A stretch of DNA of 64,000 nucleotides from a virus. Taxonomy: Duplodnaviria > Heunggongvirae > Uroviricota > Caudoviricetes. The stretch is from the IMG/VR virus record IMGVR_UViG_2711768037_000005, positions 3,040 to 67,039 of that record, one strand, 5' to 3'. Positions within the stretch are counted from its first letter, which is position 1; each line of letters starts with the position of its first letter. The notes under the pieces are model-generated. The model searched no databases, was not told the origin of the DNA, and saw only the letters and a list, made by a program, of their open reading frames with translations. Below, one piece after another: positions 8,919 to 63,609 of this stretch. The translations under genes and the position numbers were made by a program.

Positions 8919-8993
8919 GATGGTGTAGCTCAGCGGTAGAGCAGTTGGCTGTTAACCAACTGGTCGGTGGTTCGAATCCACCCACCATCGCCA
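8919..8993 (+). tRNA. tRNA-Asn (anticodon GTT)
   Basis: cloverleaf traced by hand: acceptor GATGGTG/CACCATC, D-arm GCTC-AGCGGTA-GAGC, anticodon arm GTTGG-CTGTTAA-CCAAC, T-arm GGTGG-TTCGAAT-CCACC, encoded CCA. Confidence 0.85.
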
Positions 8994-8998
8994 ATTTA

Positions 8999-9085
8999 GG
9001 GGAGTTAGTCCGTAGAGGTAGCGGTGTAGACTGTAAATCTACTGTCATGGCGACTCGGGTGGTTCGACTCCATCACTCCCCACCA
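8999..9085 (+). tRNA. tRNA-Tyr (anticodon GTA), long variable arm
   Basis: acceptor GGGGAGT/ACTCCCC; anticodon arm GTAGA-CTGTAAA-TCTAC; long variable arm; T-arm GGTGG-TTCGACT-CCATC; encoded CCA; D-arm atypical. Confidence 0.7.
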
Positions 9086-9089
9086 AATT

Positions 9090-9165
9090 GCCGGTTTAGC
9101 TCAGTTGGTAGAGCGGCTGCCTTGTAAGCAGGATGTCAGCGGTTCGAGTCCGTTAACCGGCACCA
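9090..9165 (+). tRNA. tRNA-Thr (anticodon TGT)
   Basis: acceptor GCCGGTT/AACCGGC; D-arm GCTC-AGTTGGTA-GAGC; anticodon loop CTTGTAA; T-arm AGCGG-TTCGAGT-CCGTT; encoded CCA; one mismatch at the base of the anticodon stem. Confidence 0.75.
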
Positions 9166-9656
9166 ACATAATATTGAGAACATTGGCGTAACGGGTTCAT
9201 ATCCCAATTTATGAATAAATGTTGCGTTGCCGCGTGACAACCAGTGTTCTCAACATTGTGGTGAATGCACAGGCTGATGTGCCGCAACTACAGTAGTGCG
9301 CGCTTTGCGGGGCTTGCTACAACCCTGTGTCGGAGATCAGCGCCGACCATCACAATTTGGCTCTCTTGCAACAGCATAACGCTGAAATATGTCCAATCTG
9401 GTGCGGCCTGTTCACCCGCCGTTAGCTCCACGAAACGGAGCGCACAACAGGAAAGAGCATTGAGAACCGCCGACTGCCCTGTTTGAAGCGTAAGTCCGTG
9501 CAAACGTCATACAGTGCTCTTTTCGTTGTGGTTGATGCGCAGACTGATGCGCGGAAAGAAATGCCCCAGCGACACACGAGGCGAGTTCACACACTGCATT
9601 GCAGTCAGTAGCCGGGGTCGCTAAGCCGGAGATCAGTACCGGTAACCACAACAATT

Positions 9657-9743
9657 GGAGAGTAGGGAGCATGGTGCTCAAGCGGTCTTGAAAGCCGTCC
9701 CATTGCGCAAGCGATGATGGTTCGATTCCATTACTCTCCGCCA
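9657..9743 (+). tRNA. tRNA-Ser-like (anticodon TGA), type II with long variable arm
   Basis: acceptor GGAGAGT/ACTCTCC; anticodon arm GCGGT-CTTGAAA-GCCGT (two G-U pairs); T-arm GATGG-TTCGATT-CCATT; encoded CCA; D-arm short and atypical, so could be degenerate. Confidence 0.55.
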
Positions 9744-29388: not shown

Positions 29389-29603
29389 GTTTACAGTAAA
29401 ATTTATATAAGTTAGTATCTACCTATCATGAAGATTTTTATTGAATACTTGTTGCTCATCGTATCAATAGCTTTTGTCATCGACTGCATTTTCACTGGTG
29501 TCATTCGTAAAGTCTTTTCCCCGGTGAACGACGTAGTCATAAACGCTTTGGCTATCGTGCTCGTATTTAATTCAGCATTTGATGTAATCAAAGAGGTGGC
29601 AGC

Positions 29604-29939
29604 ATGAAGGCCATCCCATTCGCGCTGTTGTTCCTTTCTTCGATCGTTGTGGCCGACACCACTGTTTATCAGTGTGAAATGTCTGTAGCCGACGTTAAGA
29701 ATGGCGCTCTTACCGACGTCATAAAAGCACCATATGGAGCGATGGTCGTAGACAGCGGCGACCAGTTCTATGTTGTGCGTGACGATCGAGTATTGTCATC
29801 CCCATATCTCACAAACCGTAATGGCAAATTAACCGGCGTCGGAGAAGACCACTTCGTATACAACAAATACAAGGGCTTCTATGGCGTTCACGCTTCTCAG
29901 CAAAGCTACCTTTTCGATGACTGCAAGGAGGTTGGATAA
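29604..29939 (+). CDS. secreted/periplasmic small protein
   Basis: 111 aa; N-terminal signal-peptide-like MKAIPFALLFLSSIVVA. Confidence 0.5.
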   Translation: MKAIPFALLFLSSIVVADTTVYQCEMSVADVKNGALTDVIKAPYGAMVVDSGDQFYVVRDDRVLSSPYLTNRNGKLTGVGEDHFVYNKYKGFYGVHASQQSYLFDDCKEVG

Positions 29940-30151
29940 TGGCATTAACACTGGCAGGTCTGGAAATCGAGAAAACAAGCGGATACTGGCGTGCTAAGGG
30001 TTTCAAGCAGCCTGGCATTCTTGAGCGTCTGGAACGTGAAGATGGGTATATCGTCCACCAGCGGCGTGAATGGCGTATGTACGATCCAGAAACAGGAAAA
30101 CTGACTACAAAAGCCGGAACACTTTGGGGTCTGTTGAAGAAAATACACTAA
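29939..30151 (+). CDS. hypothetical small protein
   Basis: 70 aa, ATGG overlap with previous stop. Confidence 0.4.
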   Translation: MALTLAGLEIEKTSGYWRAKGFKQPGILERLEREDGYIVHQRREWRMYDPETGKLTTKAGTLWGLLKKIH

Positions 30152-30198
30152 ATGCAAACTGACTGCGGCACGTTCCGCAGTCATATTTCATAGTCGTC

Positions 30199-30731
30199 AC
30201 CGCTGACAGCATACACAATCAACTGCCGCTGATAGCATATCGAGAGTCTATCTCACCGCTCACAGCATACTTTACTCGATTTTTTACCGCTGACAGCATA
30301 CTTAAGACATTGCATGAATAATGTGTACCGGTATGGGTATAACCAGAACAAAATTACCGCTGGCAGCATACGAAGGTCTGACATATGCCATTAATTACCG
30401 CTGATAGCATATCCAAACAAAAATTCCTCAATAAAACACCGCTGACAGCATACGTTCTATCAGGGAGCAGCAGGCAATAAATGCCTTTCACTACAAGCAA
30501 TCAGCGCAATAGCAATAGAATGTTAGTGAGCGCAAACCTATATGGAATGCACTCTTCGAGGTTAGTAACCACTGGGGAGGTATGACAGAGCATTGAGTGG
30601 TGATAGATGATTTACCGCTCACAGCATACGTTCATCTCACTATACCGCTGGTAGCATATCTTTAACCGTTCACAGCATACATTTCAGAAAAATAGCCGCT
30701 GATAGCATACATTTCACCGCTGACAGCATAT
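30199..30731. repeat. downstream iteron array (12 copies of 16-bp ACCGCTGACAGCATAC-type repeat in two groups); incA-like copy-control locus
   Basis: copies counted by eye at about 30199, 30225, 30255, 30286, 30356, 30397, 30438, 30614, 30644, 30665, 30695, 30716; variants CTGATAGCATAT, CTCACAGCATAC; ~160-bp spacer between the groups. Confidence 0.85.
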
Positions 30732-31825
30732 CAAAGCAGTTTGAGACTATTGGAAAGGATCTCAATCATCTTGATATTTTCAGGCGTCAAATTCTGCGAA
30801 AGTTCAGTTATCTTGTTGATAATGTTCTGTTTAGCATCAATTTCCCCGGCTTTCTCATCTGGTTTTTTGGGTTCGATGTCTTCAGGTTTTGGCGGTGCGA
30901 CTTTAAGTTTTGGATTACGGCTGTGAATCTGGATATAGATCGACCGCCCTCGCTTAATCTCGCTGTATTCGAGATAGCCCAAATCTTGGAGAGCTTTTAA
31001 GCCGTTACGTATAGTCTGATTCTGCGAGCTTACATTCCTGCTACTCAAATTGAGTCGCGCACGCAATCGAGCAAGCGATACCGGCGCAGGCTTGGTTGGA
31101 AGACTTTCGATGAAGGTGTACAGAGCCTGTGCTGTTTCTTTGCGTGGTAGCTTATTGATAACCTTTAACTGCAAAAGAACCTTATGGTCAAAGCGATATA
31201 GTTCGGCCAGCTTCGGTTCTGCATAGAACACCACCGTATCTTTCTGCTCGTTGTAGTCCACGCTATTGATGAGGTGCACCATCAGAAGCGAGATCTTGTT
31301 AGAGCCGTCGACGTTCTTTTCTTCATACGTTCTCTGGAAAGACAGAGTTGTACGCATGATCTTCAAAAGACTGTTTGTAAGCCGGTCGCGGAGTGTTTTG
31401 CGGATCTGTGACGATGGATAGCCACAAAACTTCGCAAATTTCGTGATGCTTAACTCGACACGACCATTAGGTTCGCCGTATTCTGCCAGCGAACGCACAA
31501 CGCCCACCCACGTTTTGAAATCATGATCCATGTCCAGGCGAGGACCGGTTATCTTGATATCGGAATAGCCTTCAGAACGGGCTACTTCGAGCTGGACAAG
31601 CTCCTTTGAAGCATCGATCTCATTTGGCTTGTTACGTTTACTGTATTTTGTTCCCTTAAGCGTGGGGACGAACAACCCCAGTCGCATCAACGCAATTGGT
31701 TGGACTGTATTGTTGCTATTAGGGACAAGTTCCCCTGTGTACAATTCAAGGGAACCTTCTTCAAAGTTGTCGATGTTATCTTCTACTTCTTTGTTATTTT
31801 TACCTTTTTTATTTTTTGTGGACAT
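30731..31825 (-). CDS. repA: RepFIB/P1 RepA-family iteron-binding replication initiator
   Basis: blocks NSNNTVQPIALMRLGLFVP, ITGPRLDMDHDFKTWVGVV, AQALYTFIESLPTKPAPVSLARLRARLNLSS, GYLEYSEIKRGRS match RepFIB RepA as remembered; start placed at internal Met (MSTKNKKG) because the longer ORF to 31945 runs through the upstream iterons; RBS AAAGG 7 nt upstream. Confidence 0.85.
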   Translation of the reverse strand: MSTKNKKGKNNKEVEDNIDNFEEGSLELYTGELVPNSNNTVQPIALMRLGLFVPTLKGTKYSKRNKPNEIDASKELVQLEVARSEGYSDIKITGPRLDMDHDFKTWVGVVRSLAEYGEPNGRVELSITKFAKFCGYPSSQIRKTLRDRLTNSLLKIMRTTLSFQRTYEEKNVDGSNKISLLMVHLINSVDYNEQKDTVVFYAEPKLAELYRFDHKVLLQLKVINKLPRKETAQALYTFIESLPTKPAPVSLARLRARLNLSSRNVSSQNQTIRNGLKALQDLGYLEYSEIKRGRSIYIQIHSRNPKLKVAPPKPEDIEPKKPDEKAGEIDAKQNIINKITELSQNLTPENIKMIEILSNSLKLL

Positions 31826-31844
31826 GTGGACACCTTTGTCATTC

Positions 31845-31947
31845 AACCGCTGACAGCATACTTGATTTGCCGCTGACAGAATACCAAAAACAGTTGGCAG
31901 CATACGGTGAACCGCTGACAGACTATCAATTACCGCTGACAGCATAC
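31845..31947. repeat. upstream iteron array (4-5 copies of the same 16-bp repeat); origin-proximal (incC-like)
   Basis: copies at about 31845, 31869, 31911, 31931 plus one partial copy. Confidence 0.8.
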
Positions 31948-31987
31948 ATGAACATGGCTTCAGACCAGTCGTGGCGCGGCTTACAGC

Positions 31988-32060
31988 GATCGGGGATCTT
32001 ATTTGATCTATACAAGGATCTATCTATGGATCTCTTTATTAGGATCTATCCTGTGGATAT
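31988..32060. promoter_or_regulatory. origin-like segment: six GATC sites in ~60 bp with GGATCTAT-type repeats and a DnaA-box-like TGTGGATAT
   Basis: GATC at 31988, 31996, 32005, 32017, 32029, 32043; TGTGGATAT at 32052-32060; position relative to repA and iterons mirrors P1 oriR / RepFIB origins. Confidence 0.6.
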
Positions 32061-32146
32061 GTGAATAATTAAAACAGGCATTTACTACCTTCGGCGCACC
32101 TGGTGGGTTATCGTTGCCTCGGCTAACAATCACAGAAAAATGACAT

Positions 32147-32791
32147 ATGGATCTAAAACGCACGCGCTGGTTTCGTCGTCTTGAAGACGGCTCCTACACT
32201 ATCGAATCAAATTCCAACCTGAATAAGCAGAAATTGCTTTGTGACATCTGCGGTATAGCGGCGAAGTGCCCGATCTACGAAACCAGAATTAAACTTGATA
32301 AGGCTGGTGTGAATTTTCATTTAAACAGTTGCATCAGGTACGTTCCATTACTCGCATTTCGTAAACCGATCATCGGATTGGATGCTCCCTACTTCAACAC
32401 ACTCCGTTCAGGTGTGACGTGGCGAGATCGTTTATCACCAGACAAGCTGATTTGCCTCGTATCCGCAGACACAGGGAAAATCATCCGTTTTGGGAAAGTA
32501 GACAAGGTTTACTCAGGCCCAGTAGACGAAATGTTGCGGAAACACAGCCGGTTTAATCATCTCTGTATGGGTGGTGAGAAAATCGAGAAGGTAGAAGAAG
32601 TGATCCGCAAATCCTACGGACACTTTCTGACCAAAGATAGCCTGCTCACCGCAATCTACATCAGACATGTAAAACGTGAGTTCGACCTCGAATACCACAG
32701 CGAAGAAGAGCTTAACCTTGTTGACCCACGTCCAAAAGCTGGCGTCATAAGCATAAACGCAGCGCGTAAAAAGCCCACTGACGCGCTGTAA
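32147..32791 (+). CDS. hypothetical protein
   Basis: 214 aa ORF. Confidence 0.5.
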   Translation: MDLKRTRWFRRLEDGSYTIESNSNLNKQKLLCDICGIAAKCPIYETRIKLDKAGVNFHLNSCIRYVPLLAFRKPIIGLDAPYFNTLRSGVTWRDRLSPDKLICLVSADTGKIIRFGKVDKVYSGPVDEMLRKHSRFNHLCMGGEKIEKVEEVIRKSYGHFLTKDSLLTAIYIRHVKREFDLEYHSEEELNLVDPRPKAGVISINAARKKPTDAL

Positions 32792-33045
32792 CCCTCCAGA
32801 TCGTATATTGGCGTAGATAGAATCTACGCCCCCTCAAAATAGCTCTCATAGCGTTCTACAGTGATCCTGTCTTATTTTTAGTCATACAGACAAGCAAAGT
32901 TGCGCCACGATAAATAGGTATATACTTACTTATAAATTTTGTATATTAAGGCGCTCGTTTCATTCCTAACATACCGTTATGCATAGTTGTTTACCTCCTC
33001 ATTGCTCTTAGAATTTGTATCAAAATAAACACAAAGGAAAAATAC

Positions 33046-47163: not shown

Positions 47164-47769
47164 TTGATAAAGAAGATGATTGCAGCCGAAAAAATCAAAA
47201 AGCGAAAGCGCGACAACTCTCTTCGTGACCTCTGGAGAACACCTGACTGGCTGTTTAATGCCATTCAACGTTATCTGGGAGTGACATTTGATGTTGACGT
47301 TGCCTGCAATAAGGACAATGCAAAGCTGCCTATTTTCATAGGCGTTGAGCGCGATGCTTTGAAATCTGAATGGGGGCAGCCAGGTACAATTGCCTTCCTC
47401 AATCCACCCTACTCCAAAATTTCCCCCTGGATTGATGCGGCTATACGTGAGCAGGCTCGCGGAGTTACAACAGTGATGCTAATTCCTCAATCCCTCGATA
47501 CAAAGTGGTATGAGCGTGCAACAGAGTGTGCGAATGAGACGATTATTCTGTCTGGTGGCCGCGTAGCGTTTGTCGAGCCTGACGTCAATCTGGGTCAGGT
47601 AGAAGTAAACATCAACCCCGGTGGCAGTATGCTCGTTGTTTTTCGCGGATTCTGTCAGGACGCTGGGCACTCTATAAGCAAGATCCCTTTGGACGTCATG
47701 AAAAGTCTGGGAGGGTATGATCCTGCGAATGTGATCAGGAAAAAAAGACCATCAAAGAAGGCAGCTTAG
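47164..47769 (+). CDS. dam: phage-type DNA N6-adenine methyltransferase (Dam-like)
   Basis: 201 aa; catalytic NPPYS motif (FLNPPYSKISPW) with WRTPDW motif upstream; typical small phage Dam. Confidence 0.75.
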   Translation: MIKKMIAAEKIKKRKRDNSLRDLWRTPDWLFNAIQRYLGVTFDVDVACNKDNAKLPIFIGVERDALKSEWGQPGTIAFLNPPYSKISPWIDAAIREQARGVTTVMLIPQSLDTKWYERATECANETIILSGGRVAFVEPDVNLGQVEVNINPGGSMLVVFRGFCQDAGHSISKIPLDVMKSLGGYDPANVIRKKRPSKKAA

Positions 47770-62484: not shown

Positions 62485-62510
62485 GTGGTGCATTGCACCA
62501 CCTTTTTATC
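62485..62510. terminator. bidirectional terminator hairpin between convergent umuD'-like and apbC
   Basis: GGTGGTGCA-T-TGCACCACC followed by TTTTTAT. Confidence 0.6.
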
Positions 62511-63609
62511 ACACTGCGCGGAATGCGATTTCGCTAGGTATTACTTCACCTTGCCAATACATTTGGGCAGCAACGCGATCTGCGAGGTCACGATAAATAG
62601 CCGTAAATTCGCTATCTGGACGACTAATAACGGTTGGTGTTCCGTTATCCAGATCTTCACGAAGTGAGATATGAAGTGGCATTTGGCCTAACAACTGCGT
62701 GTTGTATTTCTCGGCCAGTTTCTCTGCGCCACCGGTGCCAAAAATTGGCTCGTGATGACCGCAGTTACTGCAAATATGCACACTCATGTTTTCGACGATA
62801 CCCAGTACCGGCACTTCGACTTTTTCGAACATCACAATGCCTTTCTTCGCATCGATCAGCGCGATGTCTTGCGGCGTAGTTACCACAACCGCACCAGTTA
62901 CAGGAATGTTCTGCGCCAGCGTCAACTGAATATCACCAGTGCCCGGCGGCATATCGAGAACGAGATAGTCCAGATCAGGCCATAGAGTTTCCTGCAACAT
63001 CTGCATCAGCGCCTTGCTGGCCATCGGTCCACGCCACACCATTGCATTGTCGTCGGTGACCAGATAACCAATAGAGTTGGTTGCCAGGCCATGAGACATG
63101 ATAGGTGCCATGTGAGTACCGTCAGGTGAGGTTGGACGTTGGTTTTCCGCGCCCAGCATGGTTGGAATTGATGGACCATAGATATCGGCATCCAAAATAC
63201 CAACTTTCGCACCTTCAGCAGCCAACGCCAGTGCCAGGTTTACCGCCGTGGAGGATTTACCCACGCCGCCCTTGCCTGAGCTGACGGCGATAATGTTCTT
63301 AACGCCATTAATGCCTGGTTGGTTTTTGACGCGCTTAAGCGTGGCAATGTTGTACGACAGCTTCCAGTCAATAGCCTTTGCGCCAGTGATACGGAGCAGA
63401 TCACTACTACATTGCTCTTTCAGGTCTTCAAAAGGCTTATTCCACACGAAAGGCATGATTAGTTCGACATGCAGTGTGTCATCCATCAACGCAACATGGT
63501 GTAACGCTTTAAGCGTAGTCAGGTTGTGTTTCAGGGTTGGGTGCTGAAAATTAGCCAGCGTACCGGCTACCATTGCTCTCAGGGCATCCGGCGATTTGGA
63601 CTCGCTCAT
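62509..63609 (-). CDS. apbC: Fe-S cluster carrier ATPase ApbC/Mrp (chromosomal housekeeping gene)
   Basis: 366 aa; near-identical to remembered E. coli Mrp over most of its length (AVSSGKGGVGKSSTAVNLALALAAEGAKVGILDADIYGPS, ICSNCGHHEPIFG). Confidence 0.95.
   Translation of the reverse strand: MSESKSPDALRAMVAGTLANFQHPTLKHNLTTLKALHHVALMDDTLHVELIMPFVWNKPFEDLKEQCSSDLLRITGAKAIDWKLSYNIATLKRVKNQPGINGVKNIIAVSSGKGGVGKSSTAVNLALALAAEGAKVGILDADIYGPSIPTMLGAENQRPTSPDGTHMAPIMSHGLATNSIGYLVTDDNAMVWRGPMASKALMQMLQETLWPDLDYLVLDMPPGTGDIQLTLAQNIPVTGAVVVTTPQDIALIDAKKGIVMFEKVEVPVLGIVENMSVHICSNCGHHEPIFGTGGAEKLAEKYNTQLLGQMPLHISLREDLDNGTPTVISRPDSEFTAIYRDLADRVAAQMYWQGEVIPSEIAFRAV

Follow-up and report, generated by a model that had tools for sequence, protein, structure and literature searches.

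What kind of replicon surrounds the repA gene of this virus, and does it maintain the element as a plasmid? The window analysed here, the whole 64,000-nucleotide stretch, contains a minus-strand repA gene with 17 iterons of 16 bp, ACCGCTGACAGCATAY, on both sides of it and in one orientation throughout (Table 1). Judged on its sequence, this repA locus is the replicon for plasmid maintenance in an SSU5-like E. coli phage-plasmid and a close structural and sequence relative of the phage P1 / RepFIB origin. More specifically, we consider it very probable that this is a low-copy plasmid-prophage replicon built like, and homologous to, P1 oriR-repA-incA and RepFIB. The initial annotation had called the locus RepFIB/P1-style, a reading upheld by a Rep3_N-type RepA, by its identity to the P1 and RepFIB initiators, by the P1 order of parts and by a homologous origin core. 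The replicon is real and was correctly read, yet it is ordinary, of a kind already known and catalogued.

Table 1. Coordinates of the features of the replicon, its flank and the element's methyltransferase gene (positions in the window)
Feature	Position	Strand	Details
GC-rich terminator-like hairpin, both strands	30160..30183		9-bp stem, 6 GC pairs; also detected as inverted repeat
Distal downstream iteron cluster (incA-like), 7 iterons	30193..30457	+	cores 30200, 30226, 30256, 30287, 30357, 30398, 30439
162-bp spacer splitting the downstream array, without iterons	30453..30614		no feature recognised
Proximal downstream iteron cluster, 5 iterons	30608..30735	+	cores 30615, 30645, 30666, 30696, 30717
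repA, replication initiator, predicted iteron-binding, 364 aa (short form)	30731..31825	-	Pfam Rep3_N, phrog_775, P1/IncFIB RepA homology
Tandem TGTGGACA TGTGGACAC across repA start codon	31817..31833	+	each 7/9 match to DnaA box TGTGGATAA
repA leader, Shine-Dalgarno-like AGGTG	31826..31846	-	5 nt upstream of ATG at 31825
Five origin iterons (incC-like)	31840..31951	+	cores 31847, 31870, 31891, 31912, 31933
Best candidate repA promoter, within origin iterons	31899..31929	-	TTGATA, 19-nt spacer, TATGCT
GC-rich block, 70% GC	31966..31995		conserved with P1 oriR; GTGGCGCGGC identical in both
Six GATC sites in NGGATCT-type repeats, AT-rich DNA (30% GC)	31988..32051		homologous to P1 origin core heptamers
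Two tandem DnaA-box-like 9-mers, one base in common	32052..32068	+	align with P1's annotated 18-bp DnaA-binding site
Phage-type Dam-family N6-adenine methyltransferase, outside replicon	47164..47769	+	PF05869 2.4e-37; TIGR01712 1e-32

The Rep-family HMM search that had been suggested as a check matched RepA to Pfam Rep3_N (3.9e-9, above cut-off), and the protein also matches phrog_775 at 5e-133. It is 43.5% identical to the RepA of P1/P7 over 278 residues (32-309; E 2e-64), about 50% identical over residues 24-309 to the RepFIB initiators of IncF plasmids (F, P307 and ColV type, and Klebsiella IncFIB(K); at least 4,500 plasmid records), and 47.9% identical to SSU5 RepA. RepFIB replicons have iteron arrays on both flanks of repA; their initiators are often annotated as 'RepFIB replication protein A' or 'RepB family'. 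The likeness to these relatives, which are carried on conjugative plasmids, rests on RepA, and coverage ends near residue 309: residues 310-364 form a 55-residue C-terminal extension that is absent from both P1 RepA and IncFIB RepA. The Pfam match is what suggests a winged-helix fold; searched by sequence against the PDB, neither RepA by itself nor a six-sequence profile retrieved an initiator structure, and no NCBIfam model matched either RepA or the neighbouring 214-aa ORF. The label 'replication helicase' that RefSeq and PHROG give to P1-type RepA is a mis-annotation.

Where does RepA begin? The longest repA ORF (30731-31945) encodes 404 aa, and its first 40 codons are translated iterons that read as MLSAV repeats. 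The proposal that translation really begins at the internal Met at 31825, giving 364 aa, gains support from four sides: the nature of this extension, the stop codons that SSU5 carries where the extension would be, the N-termini of homologues, which align with the short form, and the AGGTG placed 5 nt upstream of the internal ATG, whereas the ATG of the long form has no Shine-Dalgarno sequence. The 404-aa RepA start in RefSeq is therefore probably 40 codons too long. As for transcription, a standard promoter scan found no sigma-70 site on the repA strand in the origin iterons, and a relaxed scan gave a weak candidate there, with 9/12 matches and an over-long spacer of 19 nt. In P1 the promoter PrepA is located within incC. 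A promoter inside the iterons would give RepA autorepression, as at PrepA. At the other end of the locus, the hairpin separates the first iteron from the converging + strand genes, whose Cra-like ORF stops at 30151, and is probably a replicon boundary or insulator.

With up to 2 mismatches allowed, the 14-nt iteron core CCGCTGACAGCATA matches 16 times, always on the + strand, always within 30200-31946 and nowhere else in the window; the expectation from shuffled sequences is 0.36 (sd 0.64, largest 3). The 17th iteron is a weaker copy, CAGTTGGCAGCATA at 31891, which has 3 mismatches and stands in register with its neighbours. An inverted iteron-like 15-mer within repA (31477-31491), considered as an internal operator, was rejected as probably due to chance: it has 3 mismatches to the core, and the window contains six more matches of this quality at a distance from the replicon. 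Twelve downstream iterons had been described in two groups with a spacer of about 160 bp, and they resolve into seven (30200-30452) and five (30615-30730) on either side of 162 bp, the last of them adjoining the repA stop codon. The four or five copies described upstream prove to be five, at 31847-31946, spaced 23/21/21/21 bp, or about two helical turns. By analogy, the distal cluster of seven would control copy number, both by titrating RepA and by handcuffing the origin. The number of downstream iterons differs among close relatives (12, 9 or 8), as expected for a dosage-type control array; in phage PhiR41_1, for example, three iterons of the distal cluster are deleted and the spacer is about 97% conserved. 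In Rfam, 29500-32800 matched no RNA family with E values of up to 1 allowed, and antisense-RNA control is therefore not recognised; likewise, the IHF consensus WATCAANNNNTTR has 0 matches between 30100 and 32200.

Could the repeats be something other than replication iterons? The record of the Klebsiella phage pJN2-26 names two of them attL and attR, and some par centromeres also have direct-repeat arrays around a promoter. We nonetheless give almost no credence to the idea that these are attachment sites or a partition centromere: the copies number 17, not 2, and bracket a P1-RepA homologue at the positions of P1 incC and incA, in a circular plasmid that is never chromosomal. In addition, no ParA or ParB gene lies next to the replicon, in contrast to P1. 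An attL/attR pair consists of two direct repeats bounding an integrated element beside an integrase, and the assignment was rejected here, where 17 copies stand around repA in circular DNA; the 'attL/attR' features of pJN2-26 are a mis-annotation.

If the repeats are replication iterons, how far does the likeness to P1 extend? The annotated order of P1, nine incA iterons, repA, five incC iterons, five Dam sites and a DnaA site, is the order found here. The incC iterons of P1 are spaced 22/21/21/21 as compared with 23/21/21/21, and incA copy 9 adjoins the repA stop codon in the same way as the last control iteron of our replicon. The origin core (31947-32075, 129 bp) is 74% identical to P1 oriR, scoring 57 against -6.8 +/- 4.6 for shuffles, whereas the iteron segment is not alignable (-5 against -9.3 +/- 4.2). 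The six GATC sites within the core, at 31988, 31995, 32005, 32017, 32029 and 32043, span 59 bp (31988-32046), in good agreement with the six in 60 bp first reported; the background is 4.4 GATC per kb, and nowhere else in the 64 kb do 80 bp contain more than 3. All five annotated Dam sites of P1 oriR are conserved in position, and the sixth GATC falls where P1 has GGACC. By analogy with P1, the repeats would be both the DNA-unwinding element and the target of Dam and SeqA.

The DnaA-box-like sequence of the initial annotation is TGTGGATAT at 32052-32060, and it is followed by a second tandem 9-mer, TGTGAATAA at 32060-68, which had been missed. DnaA-like 9-mers with at most 1 mismatch occur at chance level (19 found, 15.8 expected), and what makes the boxes credible is solely their tandem pairing and their alignment with the annotated DnaA site of P1. 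P1 has two DnaA-box arrays (PMC4980987). In our replicon the first iteron is only 21 bp from the ATG, and a second array is therefore at best degenerate. The tandem TGTGGACA TGTGGACAC across the start codon is tentatively a possible counterpart of it; in the Klebsiella relative this place is occupied by TGTGGGCA TGTGGATAC.

The replicon also departs from P1 in its iterons. That of P1 is a 19-mer, unrelated at the level of alignment to ACCGCTGACAGCATAY, and the two replicons should therefore be compatible and of different specificity. The 12 control iterons here form two clusters and are all direct, whereas the 9 of P1 incA comprise 6 inverted and 3 direct copies, and so the control geometry may differ. 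A conserved core together with divergent iterons is the pattern expected if a host-factor module is kept while a specificity module diverges.

How might this origin work? From the anatomy, its statistics, the RepA and origin-core homology to P1 and the plasmid-only carriage computed here, we infer by homology the following scheme of binding, opening, autorepression, handcuffing and methylation dependence. RepA monomers would bind the five phased origin iterons (31847-31946). Assisted by host DnaA bound to the tandem boxes (32052-32068), RepA would open the AT-rich GATC repeats (31996-32051), onto which the host replisome would be loaded. On the origin iterons RepA would also repress its own promoter, and the 12 downstream iterons (30200-30730) would titrate RepA and pair with the origin, which would hold copy number low. 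The origin would fire only when its GATC repeats are fully methylated by Dam, and the hemimethylated repeats left after firing would be sequestered by SeqA, limiting re-initiation. A DnaE, a DnaB-like helicase and a toprim protein are among the element's own gene products, an observation that we count against the host-replisome step of this scheme.

The initial annotation took the GATC cluster to point to control by methylation, which accords with the conservation of five of five P1 Dam sites; dependence on methylation would follow by analogy with P1. Vibrio cholerae chromosome II has an iteron-type origin, ori2, whose firing needs Dam methylation, which SeqA sequesters and whose iterons are bound by RctB in a manner that depends on DNA methylation (PMC6090056). 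Our replicon does not have this RctB-type arrangement, as GATC is absent from all 17 iterons; here, as in P1, the target of methylation would be the unwinding element and not the iterons.

Whose methyltransferase would govern initiation? An element-encoded Dam-like enzyme had been noted at 47164-47769, and the ORF is indeed present and matches both family models (Table 1). By these matches it is a real N6-adenine methyltransferase of phage type, and its identity to the VT2-Sakai enzyme is 39%. GATC is the sequence methylated by the characterised members of that family, although the specificity of this enzyme is not readable from its sequence. This enzyme, and not host Dam only, could control initiation through the six origin sites, which are homologous to the Dam sites of P1. 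Phage Dam made in a burst upon induction, for instance, might remethylate the origin fast, bypass SeqA sequestration and cause oriR to over-initiate. We regard this as quite unlikely. The gene is 15 kb from the origin, in a DNA-metabolism block with rnhA, a 3'-5' exonuclease, DHFR, thyA and nrdAB, which suggests that it is expressed with that block and not with repA. E. coli and other enterobacterial hosts are already Dam+, and for P1 oriR the host enzyme is enough, although P1 too encodes a methyltransferase. Furthermore, the SSU5 origin has lost half its GATC sites, with only 3 in the corresponding repeats as compared with six here, and dependence on methylation therefore does not extend to the whole group. 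Coupling of initiation to the element's own Dam, which would not be needed in a Dam+ host, is speculation.

A related question is whether the RepA/iteron origin is also, or mainly, a lytic origin, to which RepA would bring the DnaB-like helicase, primase and DnaE of the element itself, perhaps by means of its C-terminal extension. The replicon lies among the element's genes for a DnaB-like helicase, DNA ligase, dnaE, a 5'-3' exonuclease and a toprim protein; we recognised no second origin in the window; and the extension is a feature of the SSU5-group RepA that the P1 and IncFIB proteins do not have. Against such a role, the 12 inhibitory repeats amount to a control built against runaway replication, and P1 separates its plasmid replication (oriR) from its lytic replication (oriL/repL). 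We consider a lytic role unlikely. Very unlikely, in our estimation, is a combined scheme in which one origin serves two regimes: in lysogeny a strictly limited, SeqA-sequestered plasmid origin under host control, and after induction an origin that is de-repressed, kept fully methylated by the phage methyltransferase and served by the phage replisome. The RepA extension of about 55 residues would make this possible together with the Dam, DnaB-like helicase, primase and DnaE that the element encodes.

Does the replicon, read as a plasmid-maintenance origin, have the distribution expected of one? It is present in 120 of 5,426 complete E. coli genomes, at 185 places on plasmids and 0 on chromosomes, and the carrier plasmids in this set are circular and about 105-115 kb long. 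An integrated chromosomal origin, considered in view of apbC and metG at the end of the window, was rejected both on this distribution and because the pair is a diverged plasmid-borne copy, 85% identical to the chromosomal pair. That the replicon is an inactive remnant and another origin maintains the plasmid is highly improbable, even though replication genes are numerous in the element: its RepA is intact and matches the p09EL50 protein at 100% identity, the segment is mostly at least 95% identical across the 120 genomes, the origin core retains every P1-defined element, and the sole replicon typed by MOB-suite in p09EL50 is rep_cluster_488. Since the RepA proteins are identical, the plasmid-maintenance replicon described here is of the pECOH89 type; pECOH89 is the reference of the PlasmidFinder type IncFIB(H89-PhagePlasmid), a name that is itself attested in published papers. 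A published comparison gives RepA identities of 100% with p09EL50 and 48% with pLF82, the p09EL50 RepA being identical to that of pECOH89 (PMC3999498). The related SSU5-like phage-plasmid Cyrano is maintained at about 5.5 copies per cell (PMC9928086).

Comparison with closer relatives indicates which parts of the replicon vary. SSU5, pHCM2 and pLF82 (Cyrano) share its backbone and its neighbours (the 214-aa ORF, a metallophosphoesterase and the Cra-like gene), their RepA has a C-terminal extension and their origin core is alignable. However, their RepA is only 48% identical, and their iterons are of the CCACTGTAGAGAG type and lie downstream in both orientations. Given these differences and that in GATC number, they represent a second specificity type on the same backbone. 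In Klebsiella pJN2-26, on the other hand, the iteron sequence is the same, RepA is 85% identical, and the origin likewise comprises five iterons, six GATC and two DnaA boxes. Its downstream iterons, however, number 8 (4+4) as opposed to 12, and its spacer is 66 bp and poorly alignable. Our comparison with the pKPHS1-type replicon was made through pJN2-26, whose membership of IncpKPHS1 is an assumption. IncpKPHS1, the replicon of pKPHS1-type Klebsiella phage-plasmids, has been described with four iterons, downstream of repA (PMC6735626).

Finally, the value of these results is one of annotation rather than discovery. They fix the replicon boundaries for a common phage-plasmid family of E. coli, Shigella and Klebsiella that is able to carry CTX-M-15 (pECOH89). 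They also separate two modules, a host-factor module of GC block, GATC repeats and DnaA boxes that is shared with P1, and an iteron/RepA specificity module that has diverged, and this split is a clear example of compatible replicon types arising on one backbone. If changes in repA raise copy number and cause heteroresistance, the mutations concerned would be interpreted on this map of 17 iterons.

What kind of replicon does this phage-plasmid carry? The features collected in the table form an ordered, compact locus at window 30193-32068. The 16-bp iteron ACCGCTGACAGCATAY is present in 17 copies, all on the + strand; its 14-nt core, allowed up to two mismatches, gives 16 matches versus 0.36 expected from dinucleotide-preserving shuffles, and has no match outside the replicon on either strand of the whole 64 kb. 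The seventeenth iteron is a weaker copy at 31891 that lies in register, and the spacing of the origin iterons approximates two helical turns. Past the upstream array come a conserved GC block, AT-rich NGGATCT-type repeats and two DnaA-box-like 9-mers, in that order. Six GATC sites fall within 59 bp (31988-32046), from the end of the GC block through the AT-rich repeats, against a background of 4.4 per kb; any other 80-bp stretch of the 64-kb window holds at most three. Every countable detail of the initial annotation, which had described twelve iterons downstream of repA in two groups, four to five upstream and a cluster of six GATC sites, was borne out. It did not mention the second DnaA-like box, the GC block, the tandem at the repA start, the hairpin or the C-terminal extension of RepA. 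We also note an inverted iteron-like 15-mer, CGCTGGCAGAATACG, inside the repA coding sequence (31477-31491, - strand), complementary at 14 of 15 positions to the iteron variant at 30358-30372; it departs from the core consensus at three positions and is therefore probably a chance occurrence.

Features of the replicon (window coordinates)
Feature	Position	Strand	Description
Hairpin	30160-30183	both	terminator-like; bounds downstream iteron array
Distal downstream iterons	30200-30452	+	7 copies
Spacer between the two downstream iteron groups			162 bp
Proximal downstream iterons	30615-30730	+	5 copies
repA ORF	31825 (or 31945) to 30731	-	sits between upstream and downstream arrays
Upstream (origin) iterons	31847-31946	+	5 copies, spacing 23, 21, 21, 21 bp
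GC block	31966-31995		30 bp, 70% GC; beyond upstream iterons
AT-rich segment after GC block			56 bp, 30% GC; NGGATCT-type repeats
DnaA-box-like 9-mer TGTGGATAT	32052-60
Second DnaA-box-like 9-mer TGTGAATAA	32060-68		abuts the first; absent from the initial annotation

The 364-residue RepA matches Pfam Rep3_N above the curated cut-off (3.9e-9) and PHROG 775 (5e-133); sequence searches detect no solved structure. In tblastn comparisons it is 43.5% identical to the P1 and P7 RepA proteins over residues 32-309 (E 2e-64); the value is 47.9% for SSU5 RepA and 85-88% for RepA of Klebsiella phage-plasmids. With the RepFIB initiators that thousands of Escherichia and Klebsiella IncF plasmids encode, it shares about 50% identity. 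This element, the Klebsiella relative and SSU5, three members of the SSU5 group, share a C-terminal extension, about 55 residues long (RepA residues 310-364, window 30731-30895), a Pro/Glu/Lys-rich linker followed by the helix-like LTPENIKMIEILSNSLKLL. The RepA proteins of P1, RCS47 and JK004 lack the extension, and IncFIB RepA matches end near residue 309. The label "replication helicase" given to P1-type RepA in NC_005856, NC_018843, other RefSeq phage records and PHROG 775 looks like a propagated mis-annotation, since RepA binds the origin as an initiator and is no helicase.

Where does RepA begin? RefSeq annotates a 404-aa form, whereas the PhiR41_1 record has the 364-aa form. The 40 extra codons of the long form are the iterons read in frame (MLSAV...), and likewise in Klebsiella; in SSU5, whose iterons differ, stop codons lie five codons upstream of the repA ATG. 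At the N-terminus the short form lines up with RepA of P1, SSU5 and others, AGGTG stands 5 nt ahead of ATG 31825, and ATG 31945 has no comparable motif. These observations support the earlier proposal that the internal Met at 31825 is probably the true start. Many assemblies are rotated to begin exactly at this ATG.

The annotated P1 record AF234172 served as our reference for the origin. It contains, in the same orientation, nine incA iterons, repA, five incC iterons, five "Dam methylation sites" and an 18-bp DnaA-binding site; the order of parts is the same in the window, and the phasing of the origin iterons is nearly equal (22/21/21/21 bp in P1 incC, 23/21/21/21 bp here). The 129 bp that follow the last iteron and take in the DnaA boxes are 74% identical to P1 oriR, the origin core aligns with a score of 57 versus -6.8 +/- 4.6 for shuffled sequence, and GTGGCGCGGC is identical in the two. 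All five P1 Dam sites have GATC at the aligned window position; the sixth window GATC stands where P1 reads GGACC. The iteron segment, however, aligns with P1 no better than chance (score -5 versus -9.3 +/- 4.2), and the downstream iterons, all direct here, are inverted in six of nine cases in P1 incA. That the origin core aligns and the iterons do not argues that, relative to P1, the host-factor module is conserved and the own-initiator module has diverged. Together with RepA homology and the P1 order of parts, the origin core bears out the designation "RepFIB/P1-style replicon".

DnaA-like 9-mers with one mismatch occur in the window at chance frequency (19 found, 15.8 expected), so the two boxes are credible solely through their tandem arrangement and homology to P1. 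P1 has a second DnaA-box array (PMC4980987). Its degenerate counterpart may be TGTGGACA/TGTGGACAC, a tandem that overlies the start codon of repA; the Klebsiella relative has TGTGGATAC in the equivalent place.

We propose a mechanism drawn from the P1/iteron-plasmid paradigm, as set out in the feature annotations of the P1 record and in two reviews (PMC4980987, PMC6090056). RepA monomers would occupy the five origin iterons and DnaA the tandem boxes, and the two would jointly melt the AT-rich GATC repeats, where helicase would be loaded. Opening would need fully Dam-methylated repeats, and after firing SeqA would bind the hemimethylated repeats. RepA on the origin iterons would repress repA transcription, while the downstream array would titrate RepA and pair with the origin, giving low copy number; in Cyrano, a related phage-plasmid, it is about 5.5 per cell (PMC9928086). 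The weak points of a P1-like model are the all-direct downstream iterons and the promoter: no good sigma-70 promoter was found within the origin iterons, the best candidate being TTGATA, 19 nt, TATGCT at 31929-31899.

The initial annotation had also pointed to an element-encoded Dam-like methyltransferase. By its matches to PF05869 (2.4e-37) and TIGR01712 (1e-32), the ORF at 47164-47769 encodes a phage-type N6-adenine methyltransferase; the product is 39% identical to the VT2-Sakai enzyme. It lies 15 kb from the origin within the DNA-metabolism block, and hosts already have Dam; the suggested link to initiation is possible but unsupported.

Adjoining the origin on the DnaA-box side is a 214-aa ORF (32147-32791, +), which SSU5, Klebsiella pJN2-26 and pAVS0747-B have at the same place and with equal length. 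Its match is phrog_2105 (unknown function); Pfam and NCBIfam gave none. Just past the iteron array, a 70-aa ORF (29939-30151, +) belongs to the P1 Cra ("Cre-associated") family: it has a phrog_804 match, and its final 52 nt show 100% identity with a Cyrano gene annotated "P1 Cra protein". Four tRNA genes (Asn-GTT, Tyr-GTA, Thr-TGT, Ser-TGA) cluster at 8919-9743 (+); the pECOH89 report lists two only, Thr and Asn (PMC3999498). Also present is an apbC (mrp) and metG pair (62509-63609, -, and 63.7-64.0 kb), which brings an aminoacyl-tRNA synthetase onto the phage-plasmid. Its identity to the chromosomal copies of E. coli is no more than about 85%, and a search of 5,426 complete E. coli genomes with a 2.2-kb query gave places of at least 80% coverage in 204 of them; the pair has the look of a chromosomal locus acquired from a different enterobacterium.

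At 99% identity, the segment matches 100-115 kb circular plasmids of E. coli, Shigella and others, among them p09EL50 from E. coli O104:H4 and PhiR41_1, an infectious phage. The RepA proteins of the window and of p09EL50 do not differ (100% identity); for the latter, Falgenhauer et al. report complete identity to the RepA of pECOH89 and 48% identity to that of pLF82 (PMC3999498). The locus is of a textbook kind and an already catalogued replicon type: IncFIB(H89-PhagePlasmid) is a typing name in routine use, and the SSU5 replication genes have been described as typed "IncFIB" (bioRxiv 10.1101/2025.09.12.675607). Its anatomy holds nothing surprising to a plasmid biologist. We found no written-out account of the fine anatomy in the searchable literature, the nearest description being "four iterons downstream of repA" in the Klebsiella IncpKPHS1 group (PMC6735626). 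Direct genetics on this kind of replicon may be contained in a preprint about E. coli heteroresistance mediated by phage-plasmids (bioRxiv 10.64898/2026.08.19.745698), in which repA comes up 41 times and copy number 20 times, with citations of SSU5, pHCM2 and pMT1. Among the 5,426 E. coli genomes the replicon occurs in 120, at 185 plasmid places and no chromosomal one. The surrounding genes are those of phage DNA metabolism (DnaB-like helicase, ligase, dnaE, nrdAB, thyA, DHFR, rnhA, toprim protein, Dam). By analogy with P1, this would be the lysogenic (plasmid) replicon.

Finally, the pattern of a conserved host-factor module and a diverged initiator module holds within the phage-plasmid family as well. 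For example, another E. coli plasmid that shares this backbone aligns in the origin core only (79% identity). Klebsiella pJN2-26 has the same iteron as the window, with five copies upstream and eight downstream, six GATC sites and two DnaA boxes; its GenBank record labels two RepA iterons (1378-1397 and 2648-2667) as attR and attL, probably an artefact of direct-repeat detection. The iterons of SSU5 differ and stand in both orientations downstream, and its origin (about 1190-1260 of the SSU5 locus) has GATC in only three of its 10-bp-phased GGNTCT repeats, which are otherwise similar; Dam dependence of the origin may have been relaxed in the SSU5 lineage. Downstream iterons vary even among close relatives: twelve in the window, eight in Klebsiella and nine in PhiR41_1, where three are lost to an iteron-to-iteron deletion of 87 bp (about window 30215-30301). 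The number of iterons is polymorphic in the population, and this variation fits a dosage-type control array.
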